Source: Myxococcales bacterium
GTDB lineage: Bacteria > Myxococcota > UBA727 > GCA-2721815
Direction of reading: 5' to 3'
DNA: 64,000 nt
Assembly: GCA_002721815.1 (NCBI GenBank)
Contig: PBLQ01000021.1
Span: forward strand, 65,460 to 129,459
Each line of letters starts with the position of its first letter. Position 1 is the first letter of the stretch. The position numbers and the translations under genes were made by a program. This document shows, piece after piece, positions 6,953 to 56,982 of the stretch. Under the pieces are notes generated by a model, which had not been told where the DNA came from, made no database searches, and was given only the letters and a program-made list of their open reading frames with translations.

Positions 6953-8647
6953 GTGCCTATTCATTTTTTACCCAAACTTGGTTTTTTCGTTCTGCTTACA
7001 GGGGTTTTGAGTCTGTGGGGCTGTACCGCCAGTCAACAGAGCCAGCCCGCGCCCGTGGTGCCGACAAAACCGCTCACCCCCGAACAGGCATTGGTGGCTC
7101 AGGTCCCCATCCGCGGACCAGCAGATTTTGGGGTGGTATTTACCAGCGGGGTGCAGGGCAGTGTAAAACCCTGCGGATGTACCCAGAGGCCTTTGGGCGG
7201 TGTGTCTCGTTTGGCCACCGCGTTGAAGCATCTTCGCGCTCATTACGGGGACAACCTTTTGTTTTTGGATGCGGGGGACCTTCTTTTTGAAAAATCAAAG
7301 CCGAGGGCTGCGGTGGAGCAATGCCAAGACGAAGCCCGAATCGAATTACTGTTATCCACGTACAAAGATTTGGGTGTGGTTCAGACCGTACAGGGAAAAA
7401 GAGACACGGCAGCAGGGCTAGAGAAATACAAAAACTGGCTTGAAACCTTTCAAATCCACTATGCCGCAGACGCTATTGTGACCACACTGCAAAGGGTAGG
7501 CAAAAAAGAAATTGGGTTGTTGGCGTTACGCCCCGAAGGCGAATGGACCAGCCTGAAACCCAAAGTGGAACAAGCATTACACAACCTGTTACAGCAACAG
7601 ACTGATCACGTCGTTGTTTTGTCGCAACTTTCCTTGGAGAGCCTGAAGTCGATTTCATGGCCGAGCAAGGGTGTCGACGTCATTTTACAAGGGCATGACC
7701 CGGGTGAAGCACCGAAGCAGCCCGTGTCCCTTGGTGCGCAAGGGCCGTGGGTTTTGTTTAATGGGATTCAGGGTCAACACTTGGGCGTGGTGCATTTCTC
7801 TTGGCCGAACGGTGAAACCGATGAGCCACCTCAAGCGGACCTTAGTTTCTTTAACGTTGCAGCGGAGAAAAAAGTTTTGGCTATTCGCTTAGCGGGCATG
7901 GAGAAAAGACTGAAAGAAGCGACCAGCGATAAGCAGAAAATCTTCTTAAAAAAACGCATCAGTGACACTGCCTCGAAACTCCATGCTTTGGAGCATCAAA
8001 AAGCAGACCTGCCGCCCGAACCCGCCATGCGACTTTTTTCCTTTGCGCTTGTTCCAGAGATCACACCACACGAAGACGTAGAGATGGCGGTGGCCTCGTA
8101 CGAGCAGGCCATACCTGACTTGGTGGCCCAATGTGAGAAAGATGTGATCTGTGAGCCTGCAGAAGAAGGCGACGCCGTTTACGTCGGTGTACAAACGTGT
8201 GCAGCTTGTCATGATGCCGCCGTTAAACATTGGCGTCAAGCACTGCACCGTCGTTCCCCCATGGACGATACACCCGTGGGGCACTCACGGGCTTGGCTCA
8301 CTTTAGAAGAGATCAACAAAACCCGTGACCGGACCTGTGTGGGTTGTCACAGTGTGGGTTTCAATGAGCCGGGCGGGTATTGCAAAACCGATGAAGTGGG
8401 TTTTTTGGCGGATGTACAATGTGAGTCGTGCCATGGCGCTGGCAGTCTGCACAGTGTAACAGGCGATCCCAACTTTATCGATCGCGAGGTTCCAGAAAAT
8501 CATTGTCGGGGCTGTCATCATGTGCCGCACATTGAATCTTACGAATCCTTTAAATACGAAGAAAACCTCAAAATCATTTTGGGGCCAGGACACGGCGAGA
8601 AAAAGTGGCGACAGCTCATGGGCGATGCTGCTTTGACCCATGATTAA
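6953..8647 (+). CDS. tetraheme c-type cytochrome lipoprotein with degenerate 5'-nucleotidase/SoxB-like metallophosphatase N-domain
   Basis: Signal/lipobox 'LLTGVLSLWGC'. Four CxxCH motifs (CAACH, CVGCH, CESCH, CRGCH) in the C-terminal 170 aa. N-domain 'GGVSRLATALKHLRAHYGDNLLFLDAGDLLF' resembles the 5'-nucleotidase family, but the HTND/H metal-ligand positions are replaced ('VVFTSGVQG'). Confidence 0.65.
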   Translation: MPIHFLPKLGFFVLLTGVLSLWGCTASQQSQPAPVVPTKPLTPEQALVAQVPIRGPADFGVVFTSGVQGSVKPCGCTQRPLGGVSRLATALKHLRAHYGDNLLFLDAGDLLFEKSKPRAAVEQCQDEARIELLLSTYKDLGVVQTVQGKRDTAAGLEKYKNWLETFQIHYAADAIVTTLQRVGKKEIGLLALRPEGEWTSLKPKVEQALHNLLQQQTDHVVVLSQLSLESLKSISWPSKGVDVILQGHDPGEAPKQPVSLGAQGPWVLFNGIQGQHLGVVHFSWPNGETDEPPQADLSFFNVAAEKKVLAIRLAGMEKRLKEATSDKQKIFLKKRISDTASKLHALEHQKADLPPEPAMRLFSFALVPEITPHEDVEMAVASYEQAIPDLVAQCEKDVICEPAEEGDAVYVGVQTCAACHDAAVKHWRQALHRRSPMDDTPVGHSRAWLTLEEINKTRDRTCVGCHSVGFNEPGGYCKTDEVGFLADVQCESCHGAGSLHSVTGDPNFIDREVPENHCRGCHHVPHIESYESFKYEENLKIILGPGHGEKKWRQLMGDAALTHD

Positions 8648-9902
8648 AAGTTCGCAGAGAGGAACCCCTGCTTTGTTACAAGTTCACGAAGCTCAAGAAA
8701 AAATGGTGGCCTTGGTTGTGCCCACGAAAAGTGAGGTCCTTCATCTCACCCAAGCGGTAGGTCGCATCATCGCCGGCGCCCATGCGTCGAAACGGAACTG
8801 CCCGCCATGGGATAATTCGGCCATGGATGGCTTTGCGCTTCGCATGGATGATATTGCTTCCGCTACACCGGAATCGCCCATTCGACTCAAATTAGTGGGC
8901 GAGGTTGCTTGTGGCGATACGAGTGAGCCCTCGTTCGAATTGCCGCCCGCGTGCACCCTTCGAATTATGACGGGCGCGGTGGTGCCTCCGGGGGCGGATG
9001 CAGTGGTGATTAAGGAAAATACCCGTTTGGAGACCCAAGGCGAAGACACCTTTGTCATTTTCGAGGGACCGGCCAAGCGTCACGCGAACATACGGTTTGC
9101 CGGCGAAGATGTGGCGCAAGGCGCCGTGGTGGGCGACGATGGAAATTGCATCACACCCGCTCGATTGTCTTTGTTGGCCAGCGCTGGTTTTGCGCAGGTA
9201 GAGGTGTACCAAAAACCCAAAATTGCATTGATCGCCAGCGGCAGTGAATTGGCGCCACTGGGCGTCGAACCAGCGCCGCACCAAATCATCAACTCTAACA
9301 TTCATGCTGTGGCCGCCGCATTGGAATCTGCCGGTGCCTCTGTCCGTCTTTTAGGCATCGCCACCGATACTTTAGATGCCCACGTGGCGTTGATGTCATC
9401 AGCATTAGAAGACGAATGGGTGGTTACCATCGGCGGGGTGTCCATGGGGGAGAAAGACTGGGTTCGACCAGCGCTGACACAAATGAATGCGGAGCAGATC
9501 TTTTGGAAGGTCGCCATGCGCCCTGGTAAACCCTTGGTGTTTGCAAGGAAGGAACGCCAATTATTTGTGGGTCTCCCGGGAAACCCTGTCTCAGCTTTGG
9601 TGGGTACAGAGCTTTTTCTCAAGCCCATGATTCGTCGAGCGCAAAACAGACACAAATTATTTAAAACGCCCGTATGGGCTGAGCTGTCCAACGAAGCGCC
9701 CATTAAAAAACGTGCCGACTTTAAGACGTATTTTAGGGCGAAAGTGGATTTTGGATCTCAGCCCCCCAAAGCTTTGGCTTTAACGAAACAAAGTTCCGGT
9801 CAAATATCAGGTCTCGCAGCAGCCAATGCCTTATTGGTAGCGCCAGTGGGGCCAGAGAGCATTGCTCCGGGCGAGCCAGTTCAAGTTTTGCCCTTCTCTT
9901 GA
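8640..9902 (+). CDS. moeA: molybdopterin molybdenumtransferase MoeA
   Basis: 'PPWDNSAMDGFALR', 'GGVSMGEKDWV', 'GLPGNPVSA' MoeA/gephyrin motifs. ATG overlaps the cytochrome stop (ATGATTAA), indicating translational coupling. Confidence 0.85.
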   Translation: MIKSSQRGTPALLQVHEAQEKMVALVVPTKSEVLHLTQAVGRIIAGAHASKRNCPPWDNSAMDGFALRMDDIASATPESPIRLKLVGEVACGDTSEPSFELPPACTLRIMTGAVVPPGADAVVIKENTRLETQGEDTFVIFEGPAKRHANIRFAGEDVAQGAVVGDDGNCITPARLSLLASAGFAQVEVYQKPKIALIASGSELAPLGVEPAPHQIINSNIHAVAAALESAGASVRLLGIATDTLDAHVALMSSALEDEWVVTIGGVSMGEKDWVRPALTQMNAEQIFWKVAMRPGKPLVFARKERQLFVGLPGNPVSALVGTELFLKPMIRRAQNRHKLFKTPVWAELSNEAPIKKRADFKTYFRAKVDFGSQPPKALALTKQSSGQISGLAAANALLVAPVGPESIAPGEPVQVLPFS

Positions 9903-9909
9903 GTAGGCC

Positions 9910-11316
9910 TTAAATGAGCCAATAGACGAAACCACTACCTGCTAAAAGCGCAAACAAAAGAAGACTTGGAATCTGTAAAGACAGTGGTGTGGGTACTTTA
10001 ACGGGTACCGTCCTTTTGCGGTAAAAGAAAAAACTGGCCAAGCGCAACACCACCAAACTTTGTAATGGGCAACTCAACAAAATCGCCCAGCCGGTATAAA
10101 CCCATCCTTGTTCGAAGCTGAGTTGGGCCAAGCTGACACGTGCATCAAACCCGAGAGTCCCTGGAAAGCCCGACAGATTAGCAAGTCCCAGCAAAAAGAC
10201 GAAAGCCATGAATGGGTTGTTGAGCCCAATCCCTGAACAGCTTTCCCAGGTGAGCAATTCTTTGGAGCGTTGTGATAATGGCAGAAAGACAAAATAGACG
10301 AGCAAGCAACCCAAGCCCAGCGAGGCGAGAAGAGCCCAGCTAGGAATCAGTGGAGATTGTTCTTGTAACAGGGAACTCAGTTGTAACGAGGGCAGCAGCA
10401 ATGGCAAGTTGCCCACGATCAAAAAGGCCAAGATGCGATTTACGGTTCGTTGGTCCATGGCGGACAAAGCCGATAGGATAAAGGCGAAAAGGCAAAATCC
10501 AGCCAGAAACTGATCAGAGACCACCGACGAAGTGGACAGTTCGCCCGCGCGTGCCAATCGAAAACACAAGGTGGCCACCATGAAGGATTGCCCGATGAGT
10601 TGGACCATTGCTCCCACCGGGTGACCTCCGGTGAGTAAATCAACCCGGTTCATGTGAAAAGGTGTGATGCCCACCAATGTAAAAAGGGCGGTGGCAAACA
10701 ATAGAAGCGCCAGTAAAGCAGGGATGGCACCGGCCTGGGCGCTTTTAAACCACCAAGCCAATTCCACGGTGTGCATGGTGCTTAAGCCCACCACTACCGC
10801 CATGCTAAAAAACAAGAGCGCGAACCGTTGGTCGAAGAATGTTTTGAGCAGTGCTTCGGGCCCGTGTAATTTTTTTCCGCCCACCGTGAGGGGGAGCCCT
10901 AACGCCATTAATGCGATGCCGGTCGGTAAAATGAGCAGATAGTGATCCAAGGCCATACCACTCACCACCATCCCACCACAAAGTACCAACAAGGGATGCC
11001 CCCAACTGGCAAAATGGGATCGGCGTTCGTCTTGCGCCAGTAACAACCAATGCAATCCAATTTGGATTACATTCCACAAGAGGAGGCCCAAGAAGAAAAA
11101 GTCGTCTTCTCGCCAAATGGCATTGGCGCGTTCAGTAGGGTCATGGTTGTAGAGGACATAGCCAGTTTGGATGCCCAGCCATAAAGTGGCCAGGCATGCC
11201 AATGGAATGCCGCCTGTTTGGGGCTTGCGGGTGACCTTGGGCAACACCCATCCCAGCAAACCAAGTACGGCTGCGACCAGTATTGAAAGCGCCAATAAGG
11301 ATGGCACCAGAGTCAT
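9910..11316 (-). CDS. divergent NuoN-like antiporter-type membrane subunit
   Basis: Polytopic 468-aa protein. Last gene of a J-K-L-M-N-sized operon. 'LVGITPFHMNRVDLLTGGHPVGAMV' is alignable by eye to NuoN '[20 protein letters not shown]', but with W/P/D replaced. Confidence 0.5.
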   Translation of the reverse strand: MTLVPSLLALSILVAAVLGLLGWVLPKVTRKPQTGGIPLACLATLWLGIQTGYVLYNHDPTERANAIWREDDFFFLGLLLWNVIQIGLHWLLLAQDERRSHFASWGHPLLVLCGGMVVSGMALDHYLLILPTGIALMALGLPLTVGGKKLHGPEALLKTFFDQRFALLFFSMAVVVGLSTMHTVELAWWFKSAQAGAIPALLALLLFATALFTLVGITPFHMNRVDLLTGGHPVGAMVQLIGQSFMVATLCFRLARAGELSTSSVVSDQFLAGFCLFAFILSALSAMDQRTVNRILAFLIVGNLPLLLPSLQLSSLLQEQSPLIPSWALLASLGLGCLLVYFVFLPLSQRSKELLTWESCSGIGLNNPFMAFVFLLGLANLSGFPGTLGFDARVSLAQLSFEQGWVYTGWAILLSCPLQSLVVLRLASFFFYRKRTVPVKVPTPLSLQIPSLLLFALLAGSGFVYWLI

Positions 11317-11325
11317 CCAACCTCC

Positions 11326-12714
11326 CTAAGAAAAATGAAACAAAAAACCCGTCCAAAAAAGTGCGATCCCCAAGGTGCCACTCAGGTGCCACCGCCAAAC
11401 CACGGGCGGCGCGGCGCCTTCGGGCAAATGAACCCGTTCCACGGGGGCGGGCGTGTTCCAGCGACGCCATAATTGAAACAATGCGGTGTGAATGGAAAGC
11501 AGTCCAAAAATAAAAGCCATCAGCAATGCCACCAATTCGGTGAAGTGCCATTGATGGGCCACGTGTGTTTGAAAAAACGTATTTTCTGGCATTCCCAAAC
11601 TCCACAGTGGCAAGGCCATCAGCAGGACCGCAAACAAGAGCACGTGAATTTGTGCGAAACTGTGCATTTGTGGCCATCGTTTGAGTAGGCCCACCTGCGC
11701 ATGCTCAAAGGACGCCAAAATATCATTCTTTAAGTTGTGAAGTTCATCTACAAAAAGACCCAATGTGGCCAGGGCGGCCATGGCCCATGGCCAGGGGCCG
11801 TGAATGGAAAAAGGGAGTTTGATTTGCTCAAAGGCCAAAAGCGTAAAGGCGCTCAAAAGTAAAATAGCGTGGGTAAAGATCATCATGGGTCTGCGTTCTC
11901 CGATGGAGAGCAAACCGATCCAAAGAAAATGAACGACCAGTAAGATGGGCAAAAGGTGGGTGGCAGGTCCGAGCAATGAATCGCTCAGTGCCTGTTCTGG
12001 GGCGAAGTGAATGCCCAAGATAAATTGGGTCATGGTAAACAGCAAAGCCACTGATGGGCTGATGCTTCGTGCCACCCAACGGTGAAGAGAAAGAAAAGGA
12101 AAGATCCCCAGTCGCAACCATGATGCCAGGAACGTCCCCATGGCCAATGCCCAAGGATAGGGAATGAAATTAAAAAGGGATTCGGGCGCGAGCACAAAAC
12201 CCAATGCGATGGCATCAAAAACAATGAAAAGCGAAAAAACCCGTAATGCTGTTTGTGATCTTTGGCCAGTGCCCATTTGTGTCATTAACAGCCAAAAGAA
12301 AAAATGAGTGGAAAGCGCGAGGGACAATGAAAGCAGTGTGTGGGCCACGATGAAACTGCCCAAAACGAAGGCGCAGATCAAAAGAGTGGCAGTGATGAAA
12401 GGTTTGATTTTTTCAGGAGAATGAAAGGGGTGAATGGCGGTTGTGGTGAAGAGAAGTGTGAGTAAAGCAAAACACATACCTGCATTTTGCGCGTTGAACA
12501 CCAGCTGAATGTGGCGGGAGCCCAGGTGCAAATAGGCCGAAATTGGATTGCCTTCGAGAGCATGCTGCCACAGGGAACCATCCTCAGCGGGGAGCCAGCC
12601 CACCGCAAAACAAAGGCCTAAAGTGATGAGGGTATAAGGCCGCAAAAACGCATGATGCTTGGCGGGGACCAGAACCAAGCCAATAGCGGCCAAAAAAGGC
12701 AGCGCGATTGTCAT
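11326..12714 (-). CDS. divergent NuoM-like antiporter-type membrane subunit
   Basis: Polytopic protein. Start moved to 'MTIALPFLAAIG' to avoid a 139-bp overlap. 'FPFLSLHRWVARSISPS' is alignable by eye to NuoM 'VPLHGWLPDAHSQAP', with P/D replaced. Confidence 0.45.
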   Translation of the reverse strand: MTIALPFLAAIGLVLVPAKHHAFLRPYTLITLGLCFAVGWLPAEDGSLWQHALEGNPISAYLHLGSRHIQLVFNAQNAGMCFALLTLLFTTTAIHPFHSPEKIKPFITATLLICAFVLGSFIVAHTLLSLSLALSTHFFFWLLMTQMGTGQRSQTALRVFSLFIVFDAIALGFVLAPESLFNFIPYPWALAMGTFLASWLRLGIFPFLSLHRWVARSISPSVALLFTMTQFILGIHFAPEQALSDSLLGPATHLLPILLVVHFLWIGLLSIGERRPMMIFTHAILLLSAFTLLAFEQIKLPFSIHGPWPWAMAALATLGLFVDELHNLKNDILASFEHAQVGLLKRWPQMHSFAQIHVLLFAVLLMALPLWSLGMPENTFFQTHVAHQWHFTELVALLMAFIFGLLSIHTALFQLWRRWNTPAPVERVHLPEGAAPPVVWRWHLSGTLGIALFWTGFLFHFS

Positions 12715-12728
12715 ACACAACAATACGG

Positions 12729-14747
12729 TCAAAGTTTCTGACTCCACCAATAGAGGCTGACCCCTACGAACAAAAGAAAAACGCTGAGGACGCGGCGGCT
12801 TTCGCCATTGTGAAAGAGCCAAAAACAAAAACGAATCACTGAGCTGGGCGCCCGCCAAATGTGCCACATGAGGCCACCGGCTAATAAGGGTTGGATGATG
12901 CGTCGAGAAAGGAAGGTCAGGCGCAGGACATTTAATTCCACCGAGGTGTTGAGGTGCGTATCAACGGGTGAAGGTGCTTGCTCAGGCTCGAAGTACTTTC
13001 TTAAGGAACGTTGGCCACCCGTTTGGGTGGGTTTAGCTGTCTTGCCGAAAACCAAGTAAGCGAAGAGCCAACCTCCAAAGGCTGCCCCCCAGATCCAGCC
13101 GTAAAAGAACCATTGTGCTTGGGCGTCTACCAACACATCCAAAGCGGGTTGGTAAGACGTTAATAAAAAGAGTGCGGTTCTGATTTCAGGTTCTACCCAA
13201 GATAGAAAAGGAGCGTACGCCGCATCAAAAAAGTCAGTGAGTCGGTGAACCGGCAAGGATAAAATATTGGGTGCAATGGAGATGCCTAGAACGAAGATAG
13301 ACACCACGGACAAAAAGAGATTGTGGGACTTTGGCGCAGGGGCATTGGGCAGTTCATTCGATGCTTCTCCGCCGAAGACCTGAAAAACTGTTTTGAATGC
13401 ACCCGCGGTGAAAAGAAACGAGAAGAGCACCAATGCAATGCAAATAATGAAATGAAAATAGGGGCGAATGGCCCAGTCCGCCCACATGAAGGATGCATGA
13501 AAAAACCAAGACCCCAGCAAGGGGCACATGGAAAAAGTCATCAACATTCTAATTTGTTCTTGGCGTCTAAAAGACTTCCACAGTCCGCCCAGCTCGCCCA
13601 AAAGATCTTCACCTTTCATGGCTTCACGAACGCTGATGTGGGTGATGACAAAAAAGGGCGTCACTAAAAAGAACAATAAAATCTGCAAAAAGCCCGCGGT
13701 GCCGTCGTAAGGTATGTTGGCCAAAACAGTGAGTGAAAAAACAGCCATGAGGGCCCAATGATCGGCATCCGACCATGTGACAGCGGTGAACAACCGATAC
13801 GCATGAAACAGCGCACTGCCCGCAATGGCCACCAGAACCCAGGACAGGTTCCAAGAAATCAGAACATGGACGAGTTGGGTTTGGCGCAACACGATCAGTC
13901 CACCACCAAAGAGTACCCAGATGACGAAAACGCGGGTGATGGGCTCTTGGGCCTGCAGATGATTTTTGACTGCATTAGCCCCGAACCCCAAGCCTTGCCG
14001 GCTTAGAACACCGAGCAGGACAAATAAGGAACACCAAGAAAAAATGTGGTCGAGGTAATGACCTTGGAACAGGCCCATTTGCAACGGGATAACCTTTAAT
14101 TGAGCGGCTTGCGTCAACCAGATTTGAGGGTTGTGATTCCCAAAGGTGAAAAAGAGAAAAAGAACGGCCAGAAACATTGAAGCATCGCCGAGACGATGCT
14201 GTACAAAAAGCCAGGTACTGGTGAGACCCGACTGAGGCTCGGCATTTTTGAATGACCAGGTCGCCAACAATCCACCCAGCGACAATAAACACGTGGTTTG
14301 CATCGGGTTTGCGGTGAGAAACATGAGGTTCAAGATGGACCACAGACAGGTTTGTTTAATCAGAATCGAGGACGATGGTTGGGTTTGTGATATTTTTTGC
14401 CAGATGGTCAAAAGGATGACGGACCCCGACACAGCAAAAAGTGTCAGCGCTTCAAACGCAGTGAGTTCCATGGTGGCCCAAATGGGGCCAGGCTTCATCT
14501 GTAAAATTCCGCCTTCGGGGGCGCCCAAGGCAAGATCGTGGTATCCGCCCGCGTAGAAAATTCGTTGCAGCGCCCGCCAGGCAAAAAGGCAGTTTGTGCT
14601 CTGTGTGATCAGGAGAATGGTTAAAAGAAAATTTTCAGTTTGGCGACGGCTTAGTATCCAAAGCGCCACGATAGAGCCCATGGGAATGAGTGCTAAAGGC
14701 AGTAATTCAGGTGCGGGAATCATGGAGAGAAACGGCATCATGTTCAT
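12729..14747 (-). CDS. divergent NuoL-like antiporter-type membrane subunit
   Basis: 672-aa polytopic protein. 'KVIPLQMGLFQGHYLDHIFS' at about aa 220 is alignable by eye to NuoL 'LPLQTWLADAMAGPTPVS', with W/D replaced. Start ATG overlaps the K-like stop (ATGA). Confidence 0.45.
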   Translation of the reverse strand: MNMMPFLSMIPAPELLPLALIPMGSIVALWILSRRQTENFLLTILLITQSTNCLFAWRALQRIFYAGGYHDLALGAPEGGILQMKPGPIWATMELTAFEALTLFAVSGSVILLTIWQKISQTQPSSSILIKQTCLWSILNLMFLTANPMQTTCLLSLGGLLATWSFKNAEPQSGLTSTWLFVQHRLGDASMFLAVLFLFFTFGNHNPQIWLTQAAQLKVIPLQMGLFQGHYLDHIFSWCSLFVLLGVLSRQGLGFGANAVKNHLQAQEPITRVFVIWVLFGGGLIVLRQTQLVHVLISWNLSWVLVAIAGSALFHAYRLFTAVTWSDADHWALMAVFSLTVLANIPYDGTAGFLQILLFFLVTPFFVITHISVREAMKGEDLLGELGGLWKSFRRQEQIRMLMTFSMCPLLGSWFFHASFMWADWAIRPYFHFIICIALVLFSFLFTAGAFKTVFQVFGGEASNELPNAPAPKSHNLFLSVVSIFVLGISIAPNILSLPVHRLTDFFDAAYAPFLSWVEPEIRTALFLLTSYQPALDVLVDAQAQWFFYGWIWGAAFGGWLFAYLVFGKTAKPTQTGGQRSLRKYFEPEQAPSPVDTHLNTSVELNVLRLTFLSRRIIQPLLAGGLMWHIWRAPSSVIRFCFWLFHNGESRRVLSVFLLFVGVSLYWWSQKL

Positions 14748-15037
14748 TAGCCCCTTAGGTTGCGCCAGGCACCCAATTGGGTGGTTTTAAGTTTTTCAAA
14801 AAGAAACTGTGCGAGAATGAACATGACGAGTTGATGAATGAGCACCAAGGCCAGAAGCCCAAAAGCGATGGCATCACCCCAGGGATGTTGCCACTGCTGA
14901 TTGCCATGTAGGATCGCCAATGCCACCCCCAAAAGAGCCACATCGATGTTCAGCGATACCATGATCATTTGCCGTCGAAACAAAGCGCCAAGAACACCCA
15001 TGGTCATCAGCGCGATGGCGATCCAACCCAGGCTCAT
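14747..15037 (-). CDS. NuoK (chain 4L)-like small membrane subunit
   Basis: About 97 aa from internal Met 'MSLGWIAIALMTMGVLGALFRRQMIMVSLNIDVALLGVALAIL...'. This follows the NuoK pattern 'GLxGLxxRRNxL...E..IN..ALAFV' and the C-terminal 'L....NLRG', but both conserved TM Glu are absent. Confidence 0.5.
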   Translation of the reverse strand: MSLGWIAIALMTMGVLGALFRRQMIMVSLNIDVALLGVALAILHGNQQWQHPWGDAIAFGLLALVLIHQLVMFILAQFLFEKLKTTQLGAWRNLRG

Positions 15038-15510
15038 GACCGGCTCCTTTGGCGTATGATGAAAGGCAGAAGACCGGTCACGCTCACAAGAAAGATAGCG
15101 CCCAAATAGACGGCCCATAAAGAAAGCGAGGGATGGTTATTGGCAGCGGTACTTTTTTGAATATCGCTCAACAAGCTCGGCCACAAAGGGAGAATGGACA
15201 AAAGAAAATAGGCCGAAACCAACAGCAGCAAAATTCTTGAAATGCCCAGATGGGTATCCAGCGGTTGTGTGGGCTCTTTGTTAAAGCGTTGAACGCCTTT
15301 GATGTAAATCCATGGGGTGATGACTCCAAAACCCAAGATCAATATGAGGCACAAGATCCAAGGACTTTGTTGAGCGATCATCACGGAGGCCACCGATAGA
15401 AAGACCATCAAAAAACCGAAGACTGCCCGTTGTGGTTCTCTGACGAATAAAACCACACCGCCCCCGCCAATGGCGAAGCAAGTTTGAATGATGAGAAAGA
15501 AGGTTTCCAT
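15034..15510 (-). CDS. NuoJ (chain 6)-like membrane subunit
   Basis: Start moved to 'METFFLIIQTCFAIGGGGVV', a NuoJ-like N-terminus. Size about 158 aa. Stop abuts the K-like start. Confidence 0.5.
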   Translation of the reverse strand: METFFLIIQTCFAIGGGGVVLFVREPQRAVFGFLMVFLSVASVMIAQQSPWILCLILILGFGVITPWIYIKGVQRFNKEPTQPLDTHLGISRILLLLVSAYFLLSILPLWPSLLSDIQKSTAANNHPSLSLWAVYLGAIFLVSVTGLLPFIIRQRSRS

Positions 15511-15601
15511 GGCGGTCCGTTGTTTGGGCTTTAAAACTACCAAAACCACCTTGGGAGTCCAAAATATCGTGCTAAAGTGGCCCAATAAAGGAGCGATAAC
15601 G

Positions 15602-16678
15602 ATGCAAAGAACGTTTCAAAGTGGTGCCCTTAGAGCGATTGCATGCGGCCTGCTGTGCTTTTGGGTTTTGACACCCAAATCTTTGTTCGCCAACGATGTG
15701 GACCTATCTGTGAATTCACCCGTATCCCAAGGGACCCAACCGTCATTGGTGCTCAAGTTGAACAAGGCGGTGGATCGGTTAGAAGTGGTGTTACGTTCCA
15801 ATGGCCAATCGGTTCGTCAGGCCTACACTGGAGAGACCAAGGGAAAAACCATCGAAATCGAGATGCCCCAAAACCAAGTGGGCCTATGGCGATGGCAGGG
15901 AAAATTGAAGGTGACCTTCGCAGATGGGAGCGCCGGTCAGATGCCTTTGGCATTTTCTACTGAAGTGCGTCAGCCGCCCCAGTTGCGGTTGCACCGAAGC
16001 GGGCTCGATTTAATCAAGAAAGAACTGAAAGTTGTATTTGGTGCCGCCGCCCAAAAAGTTGAAATGGAAGTGGTGGGTGAAAACGGTGAGACTTTAGCTA
16101 AAAAAACGGTTCCTTTTAGAGGGGAAAAACGGGGGACGCCGCTTCACCTAAAATGGGAAACGAACTCTGAAGTGAAAGTGATGAAAATCGCGTTGGTGGC
16201 TCATGACGTCAACGGCTTTTTTTCTCCCACCTTGGCGTTGTACCCGTGGAGCTTGGCGATTCCTCATGAAGAGGTGGTGTTTGAAACGGCCTCCAATGCA
16301 ATCTTGGATGCTGAAGTTCCCAAACTCAAAGATGTCCTGCCGCGCATTCAGAAACGCATCCAACAGTACAGCAGTTTAATTCCGGTACGACTGTTTGTTT
16401 TGGGACATACCGATACGGTGGGGCCCGCGGATACCAACCGTGCATTGTCGCAAAAGCGAGCATCGGCCATTGCCAGGTGGTTTCAAAACCAGGGTATCAA
16501 GGTCCCCATTTTCATCCGTGGGTTTGGTGAAAGTGATTTGCGGGTGACCACAGGGGATAATGTCGACGAGGCAGCCAACCGAAGAGCGGATTATATTTTA
16601 TCGGTGAACCCGCCAAACCATCGGTCGTGGCAGGGCTGGGTTACGATTCAGGGTCAGAAGCCATCAGGCGATCAATAA
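15602..16678 (+). CDS. OmpA/MotB-family peptidoglycan-binding protein with N-terminal domain of unknown function
   Basis: Signal peptide 'MQRTFQSGALRAIACGLLCFWVLTPKSLFA'. C-terminal 'LFVLGHTDTVGPADTNRALSQKRASAIARWF...' OmpA-like domain. Confidence 0.7.
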   Translation: MQRTFQSGALRAIACGLLCFWVLTPKSLFANDVDLSVNSPVSQGTQPSLVLKLNKAVDRLEVVLRSNGQSVRQAYTGETKGKTIEIEMPQNQVGLWRWQGKLKVTFADGSAGQMPLAFSTEVRQPPQLRLHRSGLDLIKKELKVVFGAAAQKVEMEVVGENGETLAKKTVPFRGEKRGTPLHLKWETNSEVKVMKIALVAHDVNGFFSPTLALYPWSLAIPHEEVVFETASNAILDAEVPKLKDVLPRIQKRIQQYSSLIPVRLFVLGHTDTVGPADTNRALSQKRASAIARWFQNQGIKVPIFIRGFGESDLRVTTGDNVDEAANRRADYILSVNPPNHRSWQGWVTIQGQKPSGDQ

Positions 16679-27196: not shown

Positions 27197-27550
27197 TTAG
27201 AGGCGTTTAAAAAACTCAACGGGCTTGATGAGGTTGTCATAGTCCTCGTTGGTTTTTTCTGCTTTGGGACTGGTGATGTCTGATTCATCCACGTTTTCCA
27301 GTTCGTCAATGCGAAAGACATGGTTGAGCGGAATCATGAGGTTTTTGATGTTGGCAAATTCGCTTCGCACCTCGTCTTCAGTGGGGACGATGAGGTTGCG
27401 GTTTCGTTGAAAAATGATCTGCGAAATGACGCACATGTTATAAAATTCGGGTGATGCGGAAACTTCTTTGGCGAACAAAGAATACACTTTACCCAAATGA
27501 AAAAAATGAACTTTGAAGACTTTCTTTTCTTTTGCCATGGTGTTTACCAA
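27197..27550 (-). CDS. hypothetical small protein, terminal gene of the Bat/MoxR operon
   Basis: 117-aa ORF whose start overlaps the BatB/C stop by 7 bp, which suggests coupling. No motif recognised. Confidence 0.45.
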   Translation of the reverse strand: MVNTMAKEKKVFKVHFFHLGKVYSLFAKEVSASPEFYNMCVISQIIFQRNRNLIVPTEDEVRSEFANIKNLMIPLNHVFRIDELENVDESDITSPKAEKTNEDYDNLIKPVEFFKRL

Positions 27551-29562
27551 TCCTTTTCTGGCGGTGATTTGGGGGCGGTGAGTCGCATTTGAAAGGGGGC
27601 CAGCGGTTTTTCTTGTTCCCGCATGGCGTCGAGGAGCCTTACGCCACTTTTAGGCTTTGCCTCTTCTTCTTTGGGTTGTTGGGGTTGAGGCGCTTTCTTG
27701 TCTTTATCTTTGTCGCCTTTGTTTTTCTCATCTTCAGGCTGTGGCTGCTCTTGTTTGTTTTTGTCTTCTTTTTGATCAGCGTCATCAGCGTTTGAACCTT
27801 CTTGCTGCTGTTTCTCATCTTGGTTCTGTTCCTGATTCTGTTCTTGGTTTTGTTCGTCCTTGTTGTCTTGGTTCTCACCCGGCTCTTGCTGCTGGTCTTG
27901 TTGTTGTTCCTGTTGTTGTTCTTGCTGCTCTTTCATTTGAAGGGCCCGCAACAAATTCTTTTTGGCTCTTTCGTTGTTGATTTGCGCTACCAATGCGTCC
28001 CGGTATGCCTCAATGGCCCCTTCCAGATCTTGTTGTAAAAGACGAGCATTCCCCAAGCCCAGGGCCGCTTCGGATCTGATTTGGGGAACATGAGAGAGCC
28101 CGTAGGCATTTTGAAACGCTTGTTCTGCGCCGGCGAGAATGGCGGTGGCGTCGGTCTCAGCTTCAGGGTCGGGTAGGGGCGTAGGGGCTGGCGCGTTCGG
28201 GTTTGCCCCTGCGGCCGGGTTTTGCGCTTGTTGTTGGCTTTGGACTTGGGCTGCGCCTTGGGCCAACAGGGTAAAGGCGCGGTTGTACGCCTTGATGGCC
28301 CTTTGCGGGCGGGTCTGACCCGGTGCATTTTCGAAATGGGTTAAAGCGCTTTCATAATCCTGAGACTTCAAAGCCTGGATGCCCGCTTCGATTTGGGGTT
28401 CAGGGCGAAGAAAAATGGACTCTTTTTCGGGAGCAGGCTGGGCGTTGGCTGAGGTGGAGAGCAACCCCAGGGCCACGAACAGGAGTAGTTGTTTGGCTTG
28501 AGCATGAGCCATCCGTCCTCCAGGAGACAAGGCGGTGGCCAAAAGCCAAAATAAGAGCGCCAACCCCAAAGGCCACATGAAGCGATCCACGTAGAAGGTT
28601 TGGACGCGCGCTTGGAGTTCTTGCTTCTCAAGATTGCCCACCAAGCTTTCTACGTAGGAAAGACCGAGGTCGGGTTCTGATAAGCCATCGATGTATTTGC
28701 CTTTGCTTTTTTCCGCCAAACTTCGAAGCATGGGGGCATTGAGGCGGGTCATCACCGTTTGACCGTTTTTATTTTTTAAGTAGCCGGCCATTTGGCCCGA
28801 CTCATTTTTGAGGGGAATGGGCTCTCCTAATTCAGAGCCCAGCCCAATGACCACCGAGGCGATATTGGCCTTCTTGAGGGTGGCTCCTAATTCGTCGGTG
28901 GCACCCTCGTGGTCTTCTCCATCTGTGATCAGGACCAGGATGCGACCACTTTTACGGTCTTCGTCTTGCACCATGGCTTGGGCTTCAAAAAGCCGTAGGC
29001 TGGTTTGAATGCCTTCCGACAGGGCCGTACCACCTTGGGGCATGAGTTCAGGCGACAGTGCCTGTAAGAATGTTTTAATGGCTTCCATATCGGTGGTGAG
29101 GGGGCACTGCACAAAGGCAGTCCCTGCAAAGGCCACAATGCCCACTCGATTTTCTCCGATCTGTTCTAAAAATGAGGCGATTTCAAACTGAGCGCGCGAC
29201 AAGCGATCGGGACGGACGTCTTGGGCACGCATGGATTTAGACACGTCGATGGCAAACACCACATCGAGCCCTTGTCTTGGGCGCATCTCGGTTTCTGAGC
29301 CGATCAGAGGCCCGGTGAGGGCCAAGACCACAAAGAACACCGATAGCATCGATAAAAGTCGCCGGAGAAAACGGCGTTGTGGTGAAAAGAAGACGAGCAT
29401 GGGTTTGAGCGTTTCAAATTGCCCCAAGACTGCTAACTTTTGCACAATGGTTTTTTCTTCGCGTCGTGCCAGTACAAAGAGCAGCAGCGGAAAAACCAAA
29501 AAGACAAAAGCCAGTGAAAAAGCAAAATTCAAAACGAACGTCCTATGGCAGTGACGACCCAC
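27544..29562 (-). CDS. BatB/BatC-like fusion: N-terminal TM + von Willebrand A domain + TPR repeats + long Q/E/K low-complexity tail
   Basis: 'VVFAIDVSKSMRAQD...ALSEGIQ...ILVLITDGEDH' matches the vWA MIDAS pattern. TPR-like helices follow. C-terminal 'QQEQQQEQQQDQQQEPGENQDNKDEQNQEQNQ...KDKDKDKK'. Confidence 0.65.
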   Translation of the reverse strand: MGRHCHRTFVLNFAFSLAFVFLVFPLLLFVLARREEKTIVQKLAVLGQFETLKPMLVFFSPQRRFLRRLLSMLSVFFVVLALTGPLIGSETEMRPRQGLDVVFAIDVSKSMRAQDVRPDRLSRAQFEIASFLEQIGENRVGIVAFAGTAFVQCPLTTDMEAIKTFLQALSPELMPQGGTALSEGIQTSLRLFEAQAMVQDEDRKSGRILVLITDGEDHEGATDELGATLKKANIASVVIGLGSELGEPIPLKNESGQMAGYLKNKNGQTVMTRLNAPMLRSLAEKSKGKYIDGLSEPDLGLSYVESLVGNLEKQELQARVQTFYVDRFMWPLGLALLFWLLATALSPGGRMAHAQAKQLLLFVALGLLSTSANAQPAPEKESIFLRPEPQIEAGIQALKSQDYESALTHFENAPGQTRPQRAIKAYNRAFTLLAQGAAQVQSQQQAQNPAAGANPNAPAPTPLPDPEAETDATAILAGAEQAFQNAYGLSHVPQIRSEAALGLGNARLLQQDLEGAIEAYRDALVAQINNERAKKNLLRALQMKEQQEQQQEQQQDQQQEPGENQDNKDEQNQEQNQEQNQDEKQQQEGSNADDADQKEDKNKQEQPQPEDEKNKGDKDKDKKAPQPQQPKEEEAKPKSGVRLLDAMREQEKPLAPFQMRLTAPKSPPEKDW
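27690..27960. repeat. coding low-complexity (CAG/GAA-rich) tract encoding the Q/E/K tail of the BatB/C-like protein
   Basis: Runs of cttgttg/ctgttc-type trinucleotide repeats on the plus strand, within the minus-strand ORF. Confidence 0.6.
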
Positions 29563-30598
29563 GGGTGGTCAGCAACGCTTGCCCGCCGAAGAGCAGCATT
29601 AAAGCGAAGAGTAAGAAAAGTGGATAAAGATCAATGCGCTTGCGTGAAGGTGCGGCGCCTTCCAATACGGATTGGTCCATGGCTGCGAGAATTTCTTGGA
29701 GTGAAGTTTCCAGTTCTCTGGGGGCCGTGGCGGAGAAAAAATTACCATCACTGGTCTTGGCCATGCGTTGCAGTAAGCTGGGGTTGGTGGGCCACTCCAC
29801 TTCTTGGTATCGTTCTCGTCCAAACATGTCTTTGCCTACGGGATAGGGGACTTTGCCACCTTTGCCCACCAGGATTGAAAATATTTGAATCTCAAACGCT
29901 TTGGCCAATTCCGCCGCTTTGAGTGGGTCAATGGACCCGGCATTGTTATCCCCATCGGTGATCAAGATAAGGGCCTTCCCTTTGGCTTTACTTTCACGAA
30001 GTCGATTGACCCCGGTGGCGGTGGCGTCTCCGATGGCGGTTCCATCTTCGATCACACCCGTACGAATGCCGTCTAAGATTTCGGCCAACATCTCTTTGTC
30101 ATGGGTGAGGGGGGATTGGGTGTAAGCTTGACCCGCAAAGACCACCAAACCAATGCGGTCGGAGCGTCGGGTGAGCAGGTGCTTTTTGATAATGGATTTG
30201 GCAACGTTCAGGCGATCTTTGGGTTTGAAGTCTGCCGCTTTCATAGAGCCACTAACGTCGAGAACCACCACCATATCGATGCCTTCGGTTTCACTGGGGG
30301 CAGGTGGTGCCAAAATGCGTGGACGGGCCAAAGTGATCACCAACAAAAGCCCTCCCATCCACCAAAAGGTGCGGCCCAAATGAAAGAAATAGAGATTGCG
30401 ACCCTTGGGCAGTCGCTTCATGAGGTCCATTCGTGGAAAACCCAAATGGGCACGACGGCTGAGGTCCGCAAATTGCCTGATCACCACCAGCAACCAAGGA
30501 ATGAGCAGCAACAGAAGCCACGGGTTGTCCAAGACCAAGTCATTGATCCCACCTTCTTGCAGCCCACTCAAGGCGTTGTTGAGACCTTCCCAATTCAT
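29543..30598 (-). CDS. BatA-like membrane von Willebrand A protein
   Basis: Two N-terminal TM helices. 'MVVVLDVSGSMKAAD...GTAIGDA...ALILITDGDNN' matches the vWA MIDAS pattern. Confidence 0.7.
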   Translation of the reverse strand: MNWEGLNNALSGLQEGGINDLVLDNPWLLLLLIPWLLVVIRQFADLSRRAHLGFPRMDLMKRLPKGRNLYFFHLGRTFWWMGGLLLVITLARPRILAPPAPSETEGIDMVVVLDVSGSMKAADFKPKDRLNVAKSIIKKHLLTRRSDRIGLVVFAGQAYTQSPLTHDKEMLAEILDGIRTGVIEDGTAIGDATATGVNRLRESKAKGKALILITDGDNNAGSIDPLKAAELAKAFEIQIFSILVGKGGKVPYPVGKDMFGRERYQEVEWPTNPSLLQRMAKTSDGNFFSATAPRELETSLQEILAAMDQSVLEGAAPSRKRIDLYPLFLLFALMLLFGGQALLTTRGSSLP

Positions 30599-31602
30599 GC
30601 GGCCTCCTCTACGGGTTCTTCTTTGGTGGCCAAGATCAAAGCTTTAACTTGATTGGCAAAACTGTGAGCGTTTTGTGGAGGGATTTCGGCTTTGGCAAAT
30701 TTCACCAAGTCGGTGGTTTCTAAAATGTCCTTCACCAACTGAACGTTTAAGCCTGCATCTGAAATCTTTAAGAGGTCCGCCACCAGTTCTCGGGTGGTGT
30801 GTTTTTCAGCAGGGAAGTCATACCGGCCCTCCAAATAGGATCGTAGAATGTCGTTCATGAGGACGGTGACGAACGTTTTGACTTCCCCTTTTTCTAAATG
30901 CCCTTCAGCCATCAGTCGTTCAAGCCTTTCCAAGGCGACGACATGTGGAGGGATGGCAGGGGTTGCGGGTTGTTGTTCGACCAAGGCTTTGGGCAGTTCG
31001 GGAAGTCGGCGACGCATCATGAACCACAAAAAGAGCAATAAGCATACCAGTGTGGTGGCGGCAAACGTTCCAAAGACATAAGGGCGTTCATCTGAAACCA
31101 TAAAAACAAAAGGACCGGCATGCCCTTCAAAACCTTTTTCTTGCTCTTCTTTAGAGGGTGGGGGGACGGGGCGCTGGGCCAGCGCCATGGGGTCAATGAT
31201 CAAGGGCTCGTCCAAGTTGGTGGGCACTTCAATGCGAGGGGTGTCAATGTCCTTGAGGTCTAAGGGCAGAAGCGGGATACGCCAAACTTCCTGGATAAAA
31301 GCGAGCCCAGCATCGGCTCCTAACGTTTTTCTTTGGTATTGAATGGGACCCACAGCACGGAGGTTGTCTTGCGTTGGGAGCTCTTTGGGGAAGTTGAGCT
31401 GAATATGCGGGAGGTGTTTGACCGTGATCACCAACAAAACGGGCTTGCCAAATTCTGCGGTGGCAGGTTCTTGGTGAAGCGTGAGTGTGAAGTCTCGACT
31501 GGGCCCAGTTCCATCGGTTAACACGCCGCCATCCAAGGCTTGCCCTGGATGCGCAGTGAGGGCGGTGAGCCAAAAGACGATGAAGAGGGACAGACGCATC
31601 AT
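30595..31602 (-). CDS. hypothetical single-pass membrane protein of the MoxR/Bat operon (DUF4381-like architecture)
   Basis: Signal peptide, a central TM 'FGTFAATTLVCLLLFLWFMM' and a helical cytoplasmic tail. Operon position matches the usual unknown membrane component. Confidence 0.45.
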   Translation of the reverse strand: MMRLSLFIVFWLTALTAHPGQALDGGVLTDGTGPSRDFTLTLHQEPATAEFGKPVLLVITVKHLPHIQLNFPKELPTQDNLRAVGPIQYQRKTLGADAGLAFIQEVWRIPLLPLDLKDIDTPRIEVPTNLDEPLIIDPMALAQRPVPPPSKEEQEKGFEGHAGPFVFMVSDERPYVFGTFAATTLVCLLLFLWFMMRRRLPELPKALVEQQPATPAIPPHVVALERLERLMAEGHLEKGEVKTFVTVLMNDILRSYLEGRYDFPAEKHTTRELVADLLKISDAGLNVQLVKDILETTDLVKFAKAEIPPQNAHSFANQVKALILATKEEPVEEAA

Positions 31603-32555
31603 GTGGTCATTCCTCCGCTGCCCCGAGATAATAAACGGACCATGGTTTTAGGCACATCTTCCCGTTGCAGGACGGTCGCATGATCCAAACCAAAGCGACG
31701 AAAGGTTTGTCGAATGTGCGCCCGCTCTCGTTGCACCATCAGGGCGAATTGGCGTTGGCCATCTGGCGCGCTGGTGTCTACAAAATGGGTTTGTCCGCTT
31801 TCTGGATCGAAGAGCCGAATGAGCCCCACGTTGGGAAATTCGTGTTCGCGGGGGTCGGCCAGTTCCACCATCATGACATCGTGCCTTTTACCCAAGGTGC
31901 GCAGTGGCTTTTCGTAGGAGGTCACGGGTTGCTCTGGGGTTTGGAAGTCGCTCAAAATGGCCACGATGGCCCGTTGTTTTGATAGCGCGGAAAGGGTTTT
32001 GGTGGCCAAGGCCAAATCTGTTTTTTGTCCTTTGGGTTCAACCGACAAAATATCGCGCAAAATGCGCATCACATGGCCGCGTCCCTTTTGTGGGCGTACC
32101 AAACGCTCCACGCGATCGGTGAAGAGCAGCAAGCCCACCTTGTCATTGTTGCGCAAGGCGGAAAAGGCGAGCATGGCCGCTGCTTCTGTGGCCATTTGTC
32201 GTTTCGAGGCAGCGCCGGAACCAAACGACATGGAGCCAGAGAGATCGACGGCCAAAATGAGGGTGAGTTCCCGTTCTTCAGCGAAGACTTTGACGTGCAG
32301 ATCACCGGTGCGTGCGGTGGTGTTCCAATCCACATGACGCGGATCGTCCCCTGGGACATAAGCCCGGCTTTCCTCAAAAGCCATTCCTCGGCCTTTGAAT
32401 TTCGTGTGGTAAGCGCCGGAGGCTTGGTTGTTCACCATTTTTCGGGTGGACAACTCCAACTGTCGTACCCGCTTGAGCAGGGCGCGCAGTTCTTCCTTGG
32501 CTTCCGATTCGCTTTCCACCAGCGCTTTGCTGCGAAATAAAAGTGGCGTTTTCAT
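31599..32555 (-). CDS. DUF58 family protein (MoxR-associated, vWA-like)
   Basis: 'DPRHVDWNTTARTGDLHVKVFAEERELTLILAVDLSGSMSFG' DUF58 hallmark. Confidence 0.75.
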   Translation of the reverse strand: MKTPLLFRSKALVESESEAKEELRALLKRVRQLELSTRKMVNNQASGAYHTKFKGRGMAFEESRAYVPGDDPRHVDWNTTARTGDLHVKVFAEERELTLILAVDLSGSMSFGSGAASKRQMATEAAAMLAFSALRNNDKVGLLLFTDRVERLVRPQKGRGHVMRILRDILSVEPKGQKTDLALATKTLSALSKQRAIVAILSDFQTPEQPVTSYEKPLRTLGKRHDVMMVELADPREHEFPNVGLIRLFDPESGQTHFVDTSAPDGQRQFALMVQRERAHIRQTFRRFGLDHATVLQREDVPKTMVRLLSRGSGGMTT

Positions 32556-32563
32556 AAATGGGT

Positions 32564-33580
32564 CTAAGGCACAGGGACCGCTTCAAAGAGGCGTTGAACC
32601 ACTTCATCGTGTTTCACTTCTTCGGCTTCGGCCTCAAAGGTGAGATGCACACGGTGACGCAAAACATCCAGACCGATGGCCTTGATATCGTCGGGGGTGA
32701 CATAGCCGCGATGTTGCAAAAATGCATGGGCTCTGGCGGCGGTGGCCAACGCCAAGGTGGCTCGAGGTGACGCCCCGTATTGGATGTAAGGTTCGATATC
32801 GGACAAACCCACCGTTTGGGGTTCACGGGACGCGAATACCAAATCCACAATGTATTTTTTAATCTTTTCGTCGATATAAATATTGCGAGTCACTTCGCTG
32901 GCGCGCTTGAGTTCCTCGGGGCCGATGATGTCCTGGGCCACCACCGGGTTGCCTTCGGTGAAACGCTCCATGATGGTTCTTTCCTCGGCGCGCGTGGGGT
33001 AGCCCACGTGTACCTTGAGCATGAAACGATCCATTTGGGCTTCGGGCAAAGGGTATGTGCCTTCTTGCTCCACCGGGTTTTGTGTGGCCATGACAAAGAA
33101 AGGCCAAGGCAGTTCAAACGTTTTACGCCCCAACGTCACTTTGCGTTCTTGCATGGCCTCTAAAAGTGCCGACTGCACCTTGGCGGGCGCGCGGTTAATT
33201 TCGTCGGCCAAGAGCAGGTTGGACATGATGGGGCCCACGCGTTCTTCAAACACGCGCTTTTCGGGATCCCAAATGGAGGTGCCCGTGAGATCAGAGGGGA
33301 GCAAATCGGGGGTGAATTGCACCCGTTTAAAATCCAAACGCAGGACTTGAGACAGGGTGGTCAGGGTCAGGGTTTTTGCCAAGCCCGGAACGCCTTCTAA
33401 AAGAACGTGGCCGCCTGCCAACAGGCCAATGAGCACCCGTTCCACCATGTGGCGTTGGCCAACGATGACTTTTTGAACTTCATTGATCACCGAATCCACG
33501 AAAGCACTTTCTTCACGTACTTTTTGGGTGAGGCCGGCGATATCTAAGGACGATTGCGAATTAGTGTGTTGTGCTTCCAT
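32564..33580 (-). CDS. MoxR-family AAA+ ATPase
   Basis: 'GHVLLEGVPGLAKT' Walker A, 'LLADEINRAPAKVQSALLEAMQE' sensor and Walker B. About 338 aa, typical of MoxR. Confidence 0.85.
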   Translation of the reverse strand: MEAQHTNSQSSLDIAGLTQKVREESAFVDSVINEVQKVIVGQRHMVERVLIGLLAGGHVLLEGVPGLAKTLTLTTLSQVLRLDFKRVQFTPDLLPSDLTGTSIWDPEKRVFEERVGPIMSNLLLADEINRAPAKVQSALLEAMQERKVTLGRKTFELPWPFFVMATQNPVEQEGTYPLPEAQMDRFMLKVHVGYPTRAEERTIMERFTEGNPVVAQDIIGPEELKRASEVTRNIYIDEKIKKYIVDLVFASREPQTVGLSDIEPYIQYGASPRATLALATAARAHAFLQHRGYVTPDDIKAIGLDVLRHRVHLTFEAEAEEVKHDEVVQRLFEAVPVP

Positions 33581-42923: not shown

Positions 42924-42937
42924 TGTAAGGGTCTTTC

Positions 42938-44281: not shown

Positions 44282-44459
44282 TGCGCTATAACACTTTGGG
44301 ATCTCCCAATTTGCGGGGAAAGTGTCAAGATTACCAGGAATGTTTTGGTTTTTTTAATGCTTTTAACCCTTGGGAGCCCTCAAAAAACAGGCCTGAAAAT
44401 GGGCAGCTCCGTAGCGAGATGACGAAATTATGGATGAATGGCCCCATTTGAGGGCGTAA

Positions 44460-56252: not shown

Positions 56253-56270
56253 CCGTAAGAAGGGGATGCA

Positions 56271-56972: not shown

Positions 56973-56982
56973 TGGATATACC

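Follow-up and report, generated by a model that had tools for sequence, protein, structure and literature searches.

Can the membrane arm of complex I exist apart from a redox module, and what would it do once its proton-carrying residues have been replaced? This question is raised by five consecutive genes on the minus strand of contig PBLQ01000021.1 of a Myxococcales bacterium (assembly GCA_002721815.1). They lie inside the stretch of 64,000 nucleotides analyzed here, which is called the window. The genes are arranged in the order NuoJ-K-L-M-N, and exactly these five lie between an OmpA-like gene (called O) and moeA. They are referred to as the J-, K-, L-, M-, and N-like genes, and together as the module. 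The initial annotation of this DNA had described five minus-strand genes with the sizes and order of nuoJKLMN, an OmpA-like gene diverging on one side and moeA converging on the other, and the open reading frames (ORFs) and both flanks agree with that description (Table 1). On balance, the module is best read as a repurposed, non-canonical stand-alone complex derived from the membrane arm of complex I, a “pseudo-pump”.

At the locus level the module stands alone. With Escherichia coli NuoB to NuoN as queries, phmmer finds no NuoB-I-like ORF in the window or in the ~20 kb around the module in seven lineages. Tables of called genes and Pfam annotation of the neighbors agree: neither the window nor the flanks of the module in the seven lineages contain a NuoA-I-like ORF. 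Genes for NuoH, NuoA, and the Q-module are present neither in the operon nor in the window, nor in the ~20-kb surroundings in these lineages. The earlier statement that nuoA-I do not sit upstream of the module holds for the whole 64 kb. In this respect the module differs from complex I, as NuoA, NuoH, and Q- or N-module genes are all missing nearby.

Relationship of the five products to complex I subunits

Among the five window proteins, only the K-like product reaches a Pfam threshold (PF00420; score 27.8 bits, cutoff 26.1). The J-, L-, M-, and N-like products have no Pfam match, and the L-, M-, and N-like products lack PF00361 even at E ≤ 10. In NCBIfam, the N-like product matches TIGR01770 (NuoN) with an E-value of 1.6e-12, although its 47 bits are far below the trusted cutoff of 333; the L-like and M-like products match nothing there. 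Single-sequence phmmer searches of the PDB give no match, including those with the L-like and M-like products. Profiles built from the window clade only also give no PDB match for the L-like and M-like products, while the N-like profile has a single match, MbhH (6cfw_H, E 3.6e-4). Window-clade alignments compared with E. coli NuoL and NuoM by hmmsearch and hhalign are not significant, and global hhalign returns no alignment of the L-like or M-like product with E. coli. The K-like product aligns to E. coli NuoK over 91 columns with 75% probability in hhalign, and the N-like product aligns to E. coli NuoN over its full length (427 columns). Since four of the five proteins escape Pfam, the family is annotated as hypothetical and stays invisible to complex I surveys.

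A second, distant clade connects these proteins to known subunits. An exhaustive HMMER scan, run with the window-clade L-like profile only, yields 15 proteins at E ≤ 1e-3 among 1.84 billion representatives. Four of the proteins obtained are full-length distant L-like relatives (P0022-24 and P0028; 674-683 amino acids), encoded by DNA of 65-73% GC. At their loci, a divergent OmpA-domain gene is followed by J (PF00499), K (PF00420), and L, M, and N (PF00361). Each of the four passes the gathering threshold of PF00361, which is matched by the distant-clade L, M, and N products as well as by the N orthologs P0006 and P0007. PF00499 is matched by three of the eight J-like family members (best E 1.3e-9), the window J-like protein not being one of them. 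In phmmer, the top E. coli match of each distant-clade product is its own counterpart: N and NuoN at 1e-24, K and NuoK at 2e-12, M and NuoM at 8e-9, L and NuoL at 9e-8, and J and NuoJ at 2.5e-5.

The two clades are linked to each other by hhalign. The link is strongest for L (99.8% probability, E 2e-30, 658 columns), N (99.4% probability), and K (98.6% probability). M is aligned over 284 collinear columns at E 0.004, and the alignment of J is weak (E 0.05) and collinear. When profiles include both clades, each finds its cognates in the PDB and nothing else. The L profile matches only Nqo12, NuoL, ND5, and NdhF (3e-25), the M profile only NdhD, NuoM, Nqo13, and ND4 (4e-13), the N profile only NuoN and ND2 (E. 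coli NuoN at 9e-33), and the J profile only NuoJ and ND6, over the full chain length (2e-6).

Local sequence features point in the same direction. Aligned by MAFFT, the eight L-like proteins run collinear with E. coli NuoL from one end to the other. Three motifs are paired in this alignment: HRxGD with TRVGD (D178 of NuoL), MGGLW with MGGLR, and F(K/R)xxxLVFxG with FRMIFIVFHG. Near the C-terminus, HNG(D/E)xxR is found family-wide (HNGESRR in the window) where NuoL has ENGYLRW, and a terminal hydrophobic helix follows. In NuoL, ENGYLR is located at the end of the lateral helix, before the transmembrane helix (TM) 16. The C-terminus of the K-like protein is of the NuoK type, ending in LRG.

Because M is the weakest link at the sequence level, the M-like protein was modeled by AlphaFold2 from seven sequences (predicted template modeling score 0.79; mean predicted local distance difference test, pLDDT, 73). 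The model contains 14 long helices and a beta-hairpin after TM2. Foldseek returns exclusively antiporter-like subunits for it, namely MrpD, NuoM, NdhD, and Nqo13, with a MrpD model at the top (E 1e-8 to 1e-5, TM-score 0.6-0.7, identity 12-16%).

Judged by these comparisons, all five products are very remote homologs of their cognate complex I subunits, with J, L, and M connected only transitively. The assignment of the J-like product as a NuoJ homolog is partly based on the conserved gene order. The module shares with the complex I membrane arm its gene order, its subunit sizes, and the cognate identity of its best PDB matches, together with the RxGD, GGLW, and C-terminal elements of the L-like protein and the 14-helix antiporter-like fold with a beta-hairpin of the M-like protein. 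As the genes best match their own Nuo cognates and genes for MrpB, E, F, and G are missing, the alignments indicate that the module is derived from nuoJKLMN of complex I and not from mrp. The initial annotation had pictured a membrane arm of the complex I/Mrp type with altered residues and no redox module nearby, and this picture is supported. It had also proposed PF00361 as a check of the large subunits; the window proteins themselves do not match it, but the transitive and structural evidence overrides that negative. It had described the J- and K-like products as following NuoJ and NuoK patterns, but the window J-like protein alone carries no significant NuoJ signal.

Replacement of the proton-relay residues

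In complex I, the TM5 Glu, the TM7 Lys, the TM8 Lys or His, and the TM12 Lys or Glu are almost universally conserved. Their positions were confirmed in E. coli first, and the equivalents were read from family alignments including E. coli, plus hhalign for N. Neither the TM5 Glu/TM7 Lys pair of functional antiporter-like subunits nor the central TM8 Lys/His and the terminal TM12 Lys/Glu are retained in the L-, M-, or N-like proteins.

In the L-like protein, E144 corresponds to Ser156, a position that varies in the family. K229 of TM7 is replaced by Arg250, which is invariant in all eight sequences. H334, H338, and K342 correspond to Gln, Phe, and Thr, and K399 is absent. R175 and D178 are kept as R185 and D188. 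In the M-like protein, E144 has become Leu in the window clade, whereas three members of the distant clade have Asp there; K234 of TM7 is Arg207 in all family members, K265 is Pro, and E407 is lost. For TM5 of this protein, a by-eye register (FFFWLLM against FFFWEMM) was dropped in favor of the MAFFT register anchored by intermediate sequences; Leu stands at the Glu position in both.

The N-like protein keeps more of the canonical residues. E154 and K158 are kept, as are H224 and D229 (H221 and D226). E133 corresponds to Ala135, K217 to Leu214 (Trp or Gly in the distant clade), K247 to Ser or Gln, and K295 to Asn. K395 of TM12 is replaced by Arg393 in all family members. In the K-like protein, E36 of TM2 corresponds to Asp32; the position is Glu in three distant members and Val in one, so that it is acidic in seven of the eight sequences. 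E72 of TM3 is replaced by His68. Compared with complex I, the TM7 Lys is therefore Arg in L and M and Leu, Trp, or Gly in N, the TM5 Glu is lost in L and N, the TM8/TM11 Lys and His are lost, and at TM12 N has Arg, while L and M no longer have the canonical residue.

Several acidic residues are newly invariant in the family: D329 in L, D173 and E279 in M, and D288 and E358 in N. The both-clade L alignment is too divergent for pattern searching. The same substitutions are seen in both clades, which are only ~20% identical to each other, indicating that the degenerate residue pattern is ancient and has been maintained.

The claim of the initial annotation that the canonical Lys and Glu positions are altered is confirmed by the alignment with E. 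coli, while some of its details change. It had taken PLQMGLFQGH as the TM7 motif of the L-like protein. These residues (221-230) align to the loop between TM6 and TM7 of NuoL, and what corresponds to E. coli GKSAQLPLQTWLADAM is instead SRQGLGFGANAVKNHL (~residues 249-264), in which K229 has become R250; the motif is substituted as had been stated. For the N-like PFHMNRVDL, the W and P are replaced, but the Asp (D226) is kept, and so is the His (H221) of PFHxWxPD. The K-like protein had been said to lack both membrane Glu residues. It has lost E72, but an acidic residue persists at the E36 position.

Lys-to-Arg replacement abolishes titratability in this family of proteins. Since nearly all proton-carrying residues are replaced, the module probably serves a function other than canonical proton pumping, as far as the alignments tell. 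The five genes would specify a membrane complex that stands alone and is derived from the distal membrane arm (P-module) of complex I. Its subunits might be ordered J/K-N-M-L and clamped together by a lateral helix at the C-terminus of the L-like subunit. Such a complex would keep the fold and the way in which the subunits are arranged, but it would be unable to run the canonical redox- or antiport-coupled proton relay. In the alignments, fixed Arg charges stand at TM7 in L and M and at TM12 in N, and the other relay positions are hydrophobic or variable. The invariant Arg residues and the newly invariant acidic residues suggest permanent ion pairs that hold the complex as a locked scaffold. 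A canonical lateral proton relay seems unlikely, because Arg is no proton shuttle at physiological pH and most other positions of the axis are hydrophobic.

The most likely role would be that of a redox-independent complex with a plausible ion path only at its N/K/J end. This end keeps E154, K158, H221, and D226 in N and the Asp or Glu at TM2 in K. L and M could be considered as electrostatically locked structural elements. Candidate physiological roles include altered ion conduction, sensing, and scaffolding, possibly together with the OmpA-like envelope protein.

The main open question on the mechanism of complex I is how electrostatic events travel along the hydrophilic axis of NuoN-M-L. 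The module could be informative here, as a natural, selectively maintained arm in which nearly every axis residue is replaced. It may show which architecture is kept for reasons other than pumping: the end of the lateral helix, the GGL motifs, RxGD, the equivalents of NuoN E154, K158, H224, and D229, and the acidic residue of NuoK TM2. It also offers a testable system for non-canonical functions of antiporter-like proteins. It can be proposed, tentatively and with less than even confidence, that the module represents an undescribed functional class in the complex I/Mrp superfamily, a redox-independent “pseudo-P-module” in which the relay Lys and Glu are replaced by permanently charged Arg with new acidic partners and which is selected for a non-pumping role. 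Such a role might be voltage or ion sensing, passive or altered-specificity ion conduction, or scaffolding of the membrane or envelope. If this is true, the module is a natural “dead-pump” control for models of complex I coupling. In the literature searched, a module consisting of J to N only, with degenerate relay residues, is not described, and only generic partial Nuo clusters are reported.

Occurrence, selection, and competing explanations

An identical N-like protein is encoded by no fewer than 11 independent contigs, which come from Tara Oceans, JGI marine metagenomes, SRA/Logan assemblies, and the NCBI metagenome-assembled genome GCA_002298025.1 (“Myxococcales bacterium”). Therefore, the locus belongs to a real and widespread marine organism, and an assembly artefact is excluded. 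The family is small. An index of 5.8 billion proteins contains three clusters for L, four for N, and seven for M, and profile searches of the GTDB representative genomes with the M-like and N-like alignments find no member of the lineage. The module is confined to a small set of uncultured, Myxococcales-like bacteria, comprising one marine clade and one high-GC clade. As to the co-occurrence of the five genes in related genomes, which the initial annotation had asked about, the module is found in seven lineages.

Wherever the coverage of a lineage is adequate, synteny of the module is conserved and none of its five ORFs is disrupted. Only L008 and L010 show frameshifts and broken-up L- and M-like genes, and their contigs have just 1.4-1.8x coverage. 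These contigs are otherwise near-identical to L007 and L009, and the defects look like sequencing errors rather than pseudogenes. Between L009 and L011, the closest pair, the ratio of nonsynonymous to synonymous substitution rates (dN/dS) is 0.11 for J, 0.06 for K, 0.11 for L, and 0.10 for M, with dS of 1.6-2.2. Between the window and L007, amino-acid identity is 43-56% for the module and 68-78% for MoeA, TrmD, and an RNA methyltransferase, so the module evolves about twice as fast as the neighboring housekeeping genes.

With intact ORFs and dN/dS of 0.06-0.11, the five genes form a functional set that is kept by purifying selection and is not decaying. The alternative of a decaying paralog set, named in the initial annotation, would make the five genes pseudogenizing remnants of a duplicated nuo operon. 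The extreme divergence and the loss of catalytic residues would fit it, but the ORF and dN/dS data contradict it, and invariant Arg residues as well as clade-specific invariant motifs have been kept in clades of only ~20% identity. This alternative is hardly credible and was rejected.

Two further explanations were weighed. One is a split nuo operon, in which the five genes are the sole nuoJKLMN and their products dock on NuoA-I/H encoded elsewhere, forming a genuine but unusual, weakly pumping or non-pumping NADH- or ferredoxin:quinone oxidoreductase. Each of the genes has its own Nuo cognate, not an Mrp subunit, as its closest known relative; NuoJ and NuoK, which contact NuoA and NuoH in complex I, are both retained; and the acidic residue at the TM2 position of the E-channel is seen in seven of the eight K-like sequences. 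A working complex I, however, is expected to keep the TM5 Glu, TM7 Lys, TM8 Lys/His, and TM12 Lys/Glu, which are here lost or changed to Arg. Four of the five proteins fail Pfam and the module evolves at about twice the rate of its housekeeping neighbors, and the 64 kb here and the flanks in seven lineages are devoid of NuoA-I-like ORFs. Partial Nuo clusters are common in genome surveys, and an “incomplete C-I” category comprises 2,171 species (PMC12361115). The “Nuo-Partial” or “incomplete complex I” sets of that survey resemble the module in being a nuo subset without the remainder, but they were detected by hidden Markov models of canonical subunits, to which four of the five proteins here would go undetected. 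Taken together, a split operon is unlikely. The other explanation is a secondary cation/proton antiporter similar to Mrp, the module alone acting as a multi-subunit Na+(K+)/H+ exchanger with substitute residues. Mrp (CPA3, MrpA-G) is likewise a redox-independent, stand-alone relative of the membrane arm, built from MrpA (NuoL-like), MrpD (NuoM/N-like), and MrpC (NuoK-like) (PMC7419157, PMC9568556), and MrpD heads the structural matches of the M-like model. The host is marine, and strong purifying selection points to an active function. On the other hand, the module has a nuo-like gene order, lacks homologs of MrpB, E, F, and G, contains a separate NuoJ-like gene, and includes three large subunits where Mrp has two. 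Its sequence affinity is to Nuo cognates, the relay Lys and Glu that both Mrp and complex I need for proton transfer are missing although Mrp conserves them, and the change from Lys to Arg removes titratability. An Mrp-like antiporter is thus quite unlikely. The MBH and MBS modules, to which MbhH belongs, are of the same superfamily, but their genes come with those for hydrogenase- or sulfane-reductase-type catalytic subunits and for a NuoH-like anchor, all of which are missing here.

The remaining explanation is an envelope-linked machine, in which the module works with the OmpA-domain protein, for instance to link an ion gradient or the state of the membrane to a periplasmic partner that is anchored on peptidoglycan. 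The O protein (358 amino acids) consists of a signal peptide, a beta-rich N-terminal region of ~240 amino acids, and an OmpA_C peptidoglycan-binding domain. In each of the seven lineages that carry the module, the O gene lies next to it and is transcribed divergently; this holds even for L020, in which both outer flanks differ. In the neighbor-joining tree of the O family, module-linked O proteins form one clade, within which, however, a subclade lacking the module is nested. The O family is widely distributed; its 283 metagenome loci come from samples of soil, freshwater, and marine origin. Among the best 80 of these 283 loci, 79 have no Nuo-like ORF beside O, and the single one with J and K is a window-clade contig. 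The neighbors of O elsewhere are heterogeneous; ORF clustering around O is too noisy in high-GC DNA to define other conserved neighbors. As the O family mostly occurs without the module, O was downgraded as an obligate partner. The module lineages share wider synteny (e.g., the trmD cluster), and the adjacency is compatible with inherited synteny, while a functional link is possible. An envelope-linked machine is quite unlikely on these grounds. As a separate observation, the N-terminal region of O and its IPHEEVVF motif are conserved and have no Pfam model.

Several points weigh against the pseudo-pump reading itself. The NuoA-I/H partner is possibly encoded elsewhere in the genome. The AlphaFold2 model of the L-like protein, made from a three-sequence alignment, failed (pLDDT 34) because the alignment is too shallow, and the lateral helix is seen by alignment only. 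The M-like model is weak at TM6-TM7, with pLDDT below 50 at residues 180-217. At 12-25% identity, the aligned positions are possibly off by a few residues in TM5, TM8, and TM12 of M, TM12 of L, and TM8 of N. The functional reading is drawn solely from residue patterns; Arg may still contribute to the handling of ions, and a pathway could be rebuilt from other polar residues.

Gene layout and other features of the window

The coordinates of the module, its flanking genes, and the codons of the invariant Arg residues are listed in Table 1.

Table 1. Module genes, flanking genes, and codons of invariant Arg residues, with positions counted from the first nucleotide of the window.
Feature	Position	Strand	Description
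moeA	8640-9902	+	convergent, 7 bp from the stop codon of the N-like gene
N-like gene	9910-11316	-	468 aa; putative remote NuoN/ND2-type subunit
Arg393 codon, N-like gene (K395, TM12)	10138..10140	-	invariant in all family members
M-like gene	11326-12732	-	468 aa from TTG, 462 aa from ATG at 12714; putative remote NuoM/ND4/MrpD-type subunit
Arg207 codon, M-like gene (K234, TM7)	12112..12114	-	invariant in all family members
L-like gene	12729-14747	-	672 aa; putative remote NuoL/ND5-type subunit
Arg250 codon, L-like gene (K229, TM7)	13998..14000	-	invariant, 8/8
K-like gene	14747-15037	-	96 aa, three hydrophobic segments; NuoK/ND4L homolog
J-like gene	15034-15510	-	158 aa, ATG start, five hydrophobic segments; putative remote NuoJ/ND6 homolog
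Intergenic region between J-like gene and O	15511..15601	.	91 bp, divergent; presumed shared promoter region
OmpA-domain gene (O)	15602-16678	+	divergent, 91 bp upstream of the J-like gene; PF00691

The junctions are not uniform. The initial annotation had reported 4-bp ATGA overlaps throughout, which is true of J and K only. K and L overlap by 1 bp (TAATG). L and M share TTGA if M starts at TTG, and are separated by a short gap if it starts at ATG. Between M and N there is a 9-bp spacer, with a GGGAGG ribosome-binding site ahead of the N-like gene. A promoter and terminator scan finds no sigma-70-like site in the region between J and O, and terminator-like sites are fewer than in shuffled sequence. 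The use of this region as a promoter is presumed from its divergent layout.

Upstream of moeA, positions 6953-8647 (+) encode a multihaem cytochrome c554-like protein of 564 amino acids, overlapping the start of moeA by 8 bp. In the window clade, the two genes keep their synteny with the module, and in the distant L018 they are near it too.

A 429-amino-acid FAD amine-oxidase-like protein is encoded at 52528-53817 (-), 41 kb from the module. It is 57% identical to the product of L020:14849-16135, which is directly downstream of the N-like gene there, and is far more conserved than the module between the window and L020. A Ser/Thr kinase gene (53840-55258) adjoins the amine-oxidase-like gene in the window, and in L020 a kinase adjoins the OmpA-like gene. 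This pattern is probably a remnant of regional synteny.

The GC content at 56000-64000 is 0.42-0.47, against ~0.52 elsewhere in the window. This segment contains a sugar/nonulosonic-acid-type glycan cluster with a WbqC-like protein, a cytidylyltransferase, a short-chain dehydrogenase/reductase, and a DegT aminotransferase. It also encodes a PseB-like Polysacc_synt_2 protein with an N-terminal MerR helix-turn-helix domain. It may be a horizontally acquired surface-glycan island.

An operon of the BatA/Bat type, with a MoxR AAA+ ATPase, DUF58, and VWA-domain proteins, occupies 27544-33580 (-); one of its genes, of 335 amino acids, has no Pfam match. Genes of fatty-acid beta-oxidation are located at 40725-46298 and 50631-52454, including a FadB-like multifunctional enzyme, a thiolase, and two long acyl-CoA dehydrogenases, which suggests an aerobic heterotrophic lifestyle.

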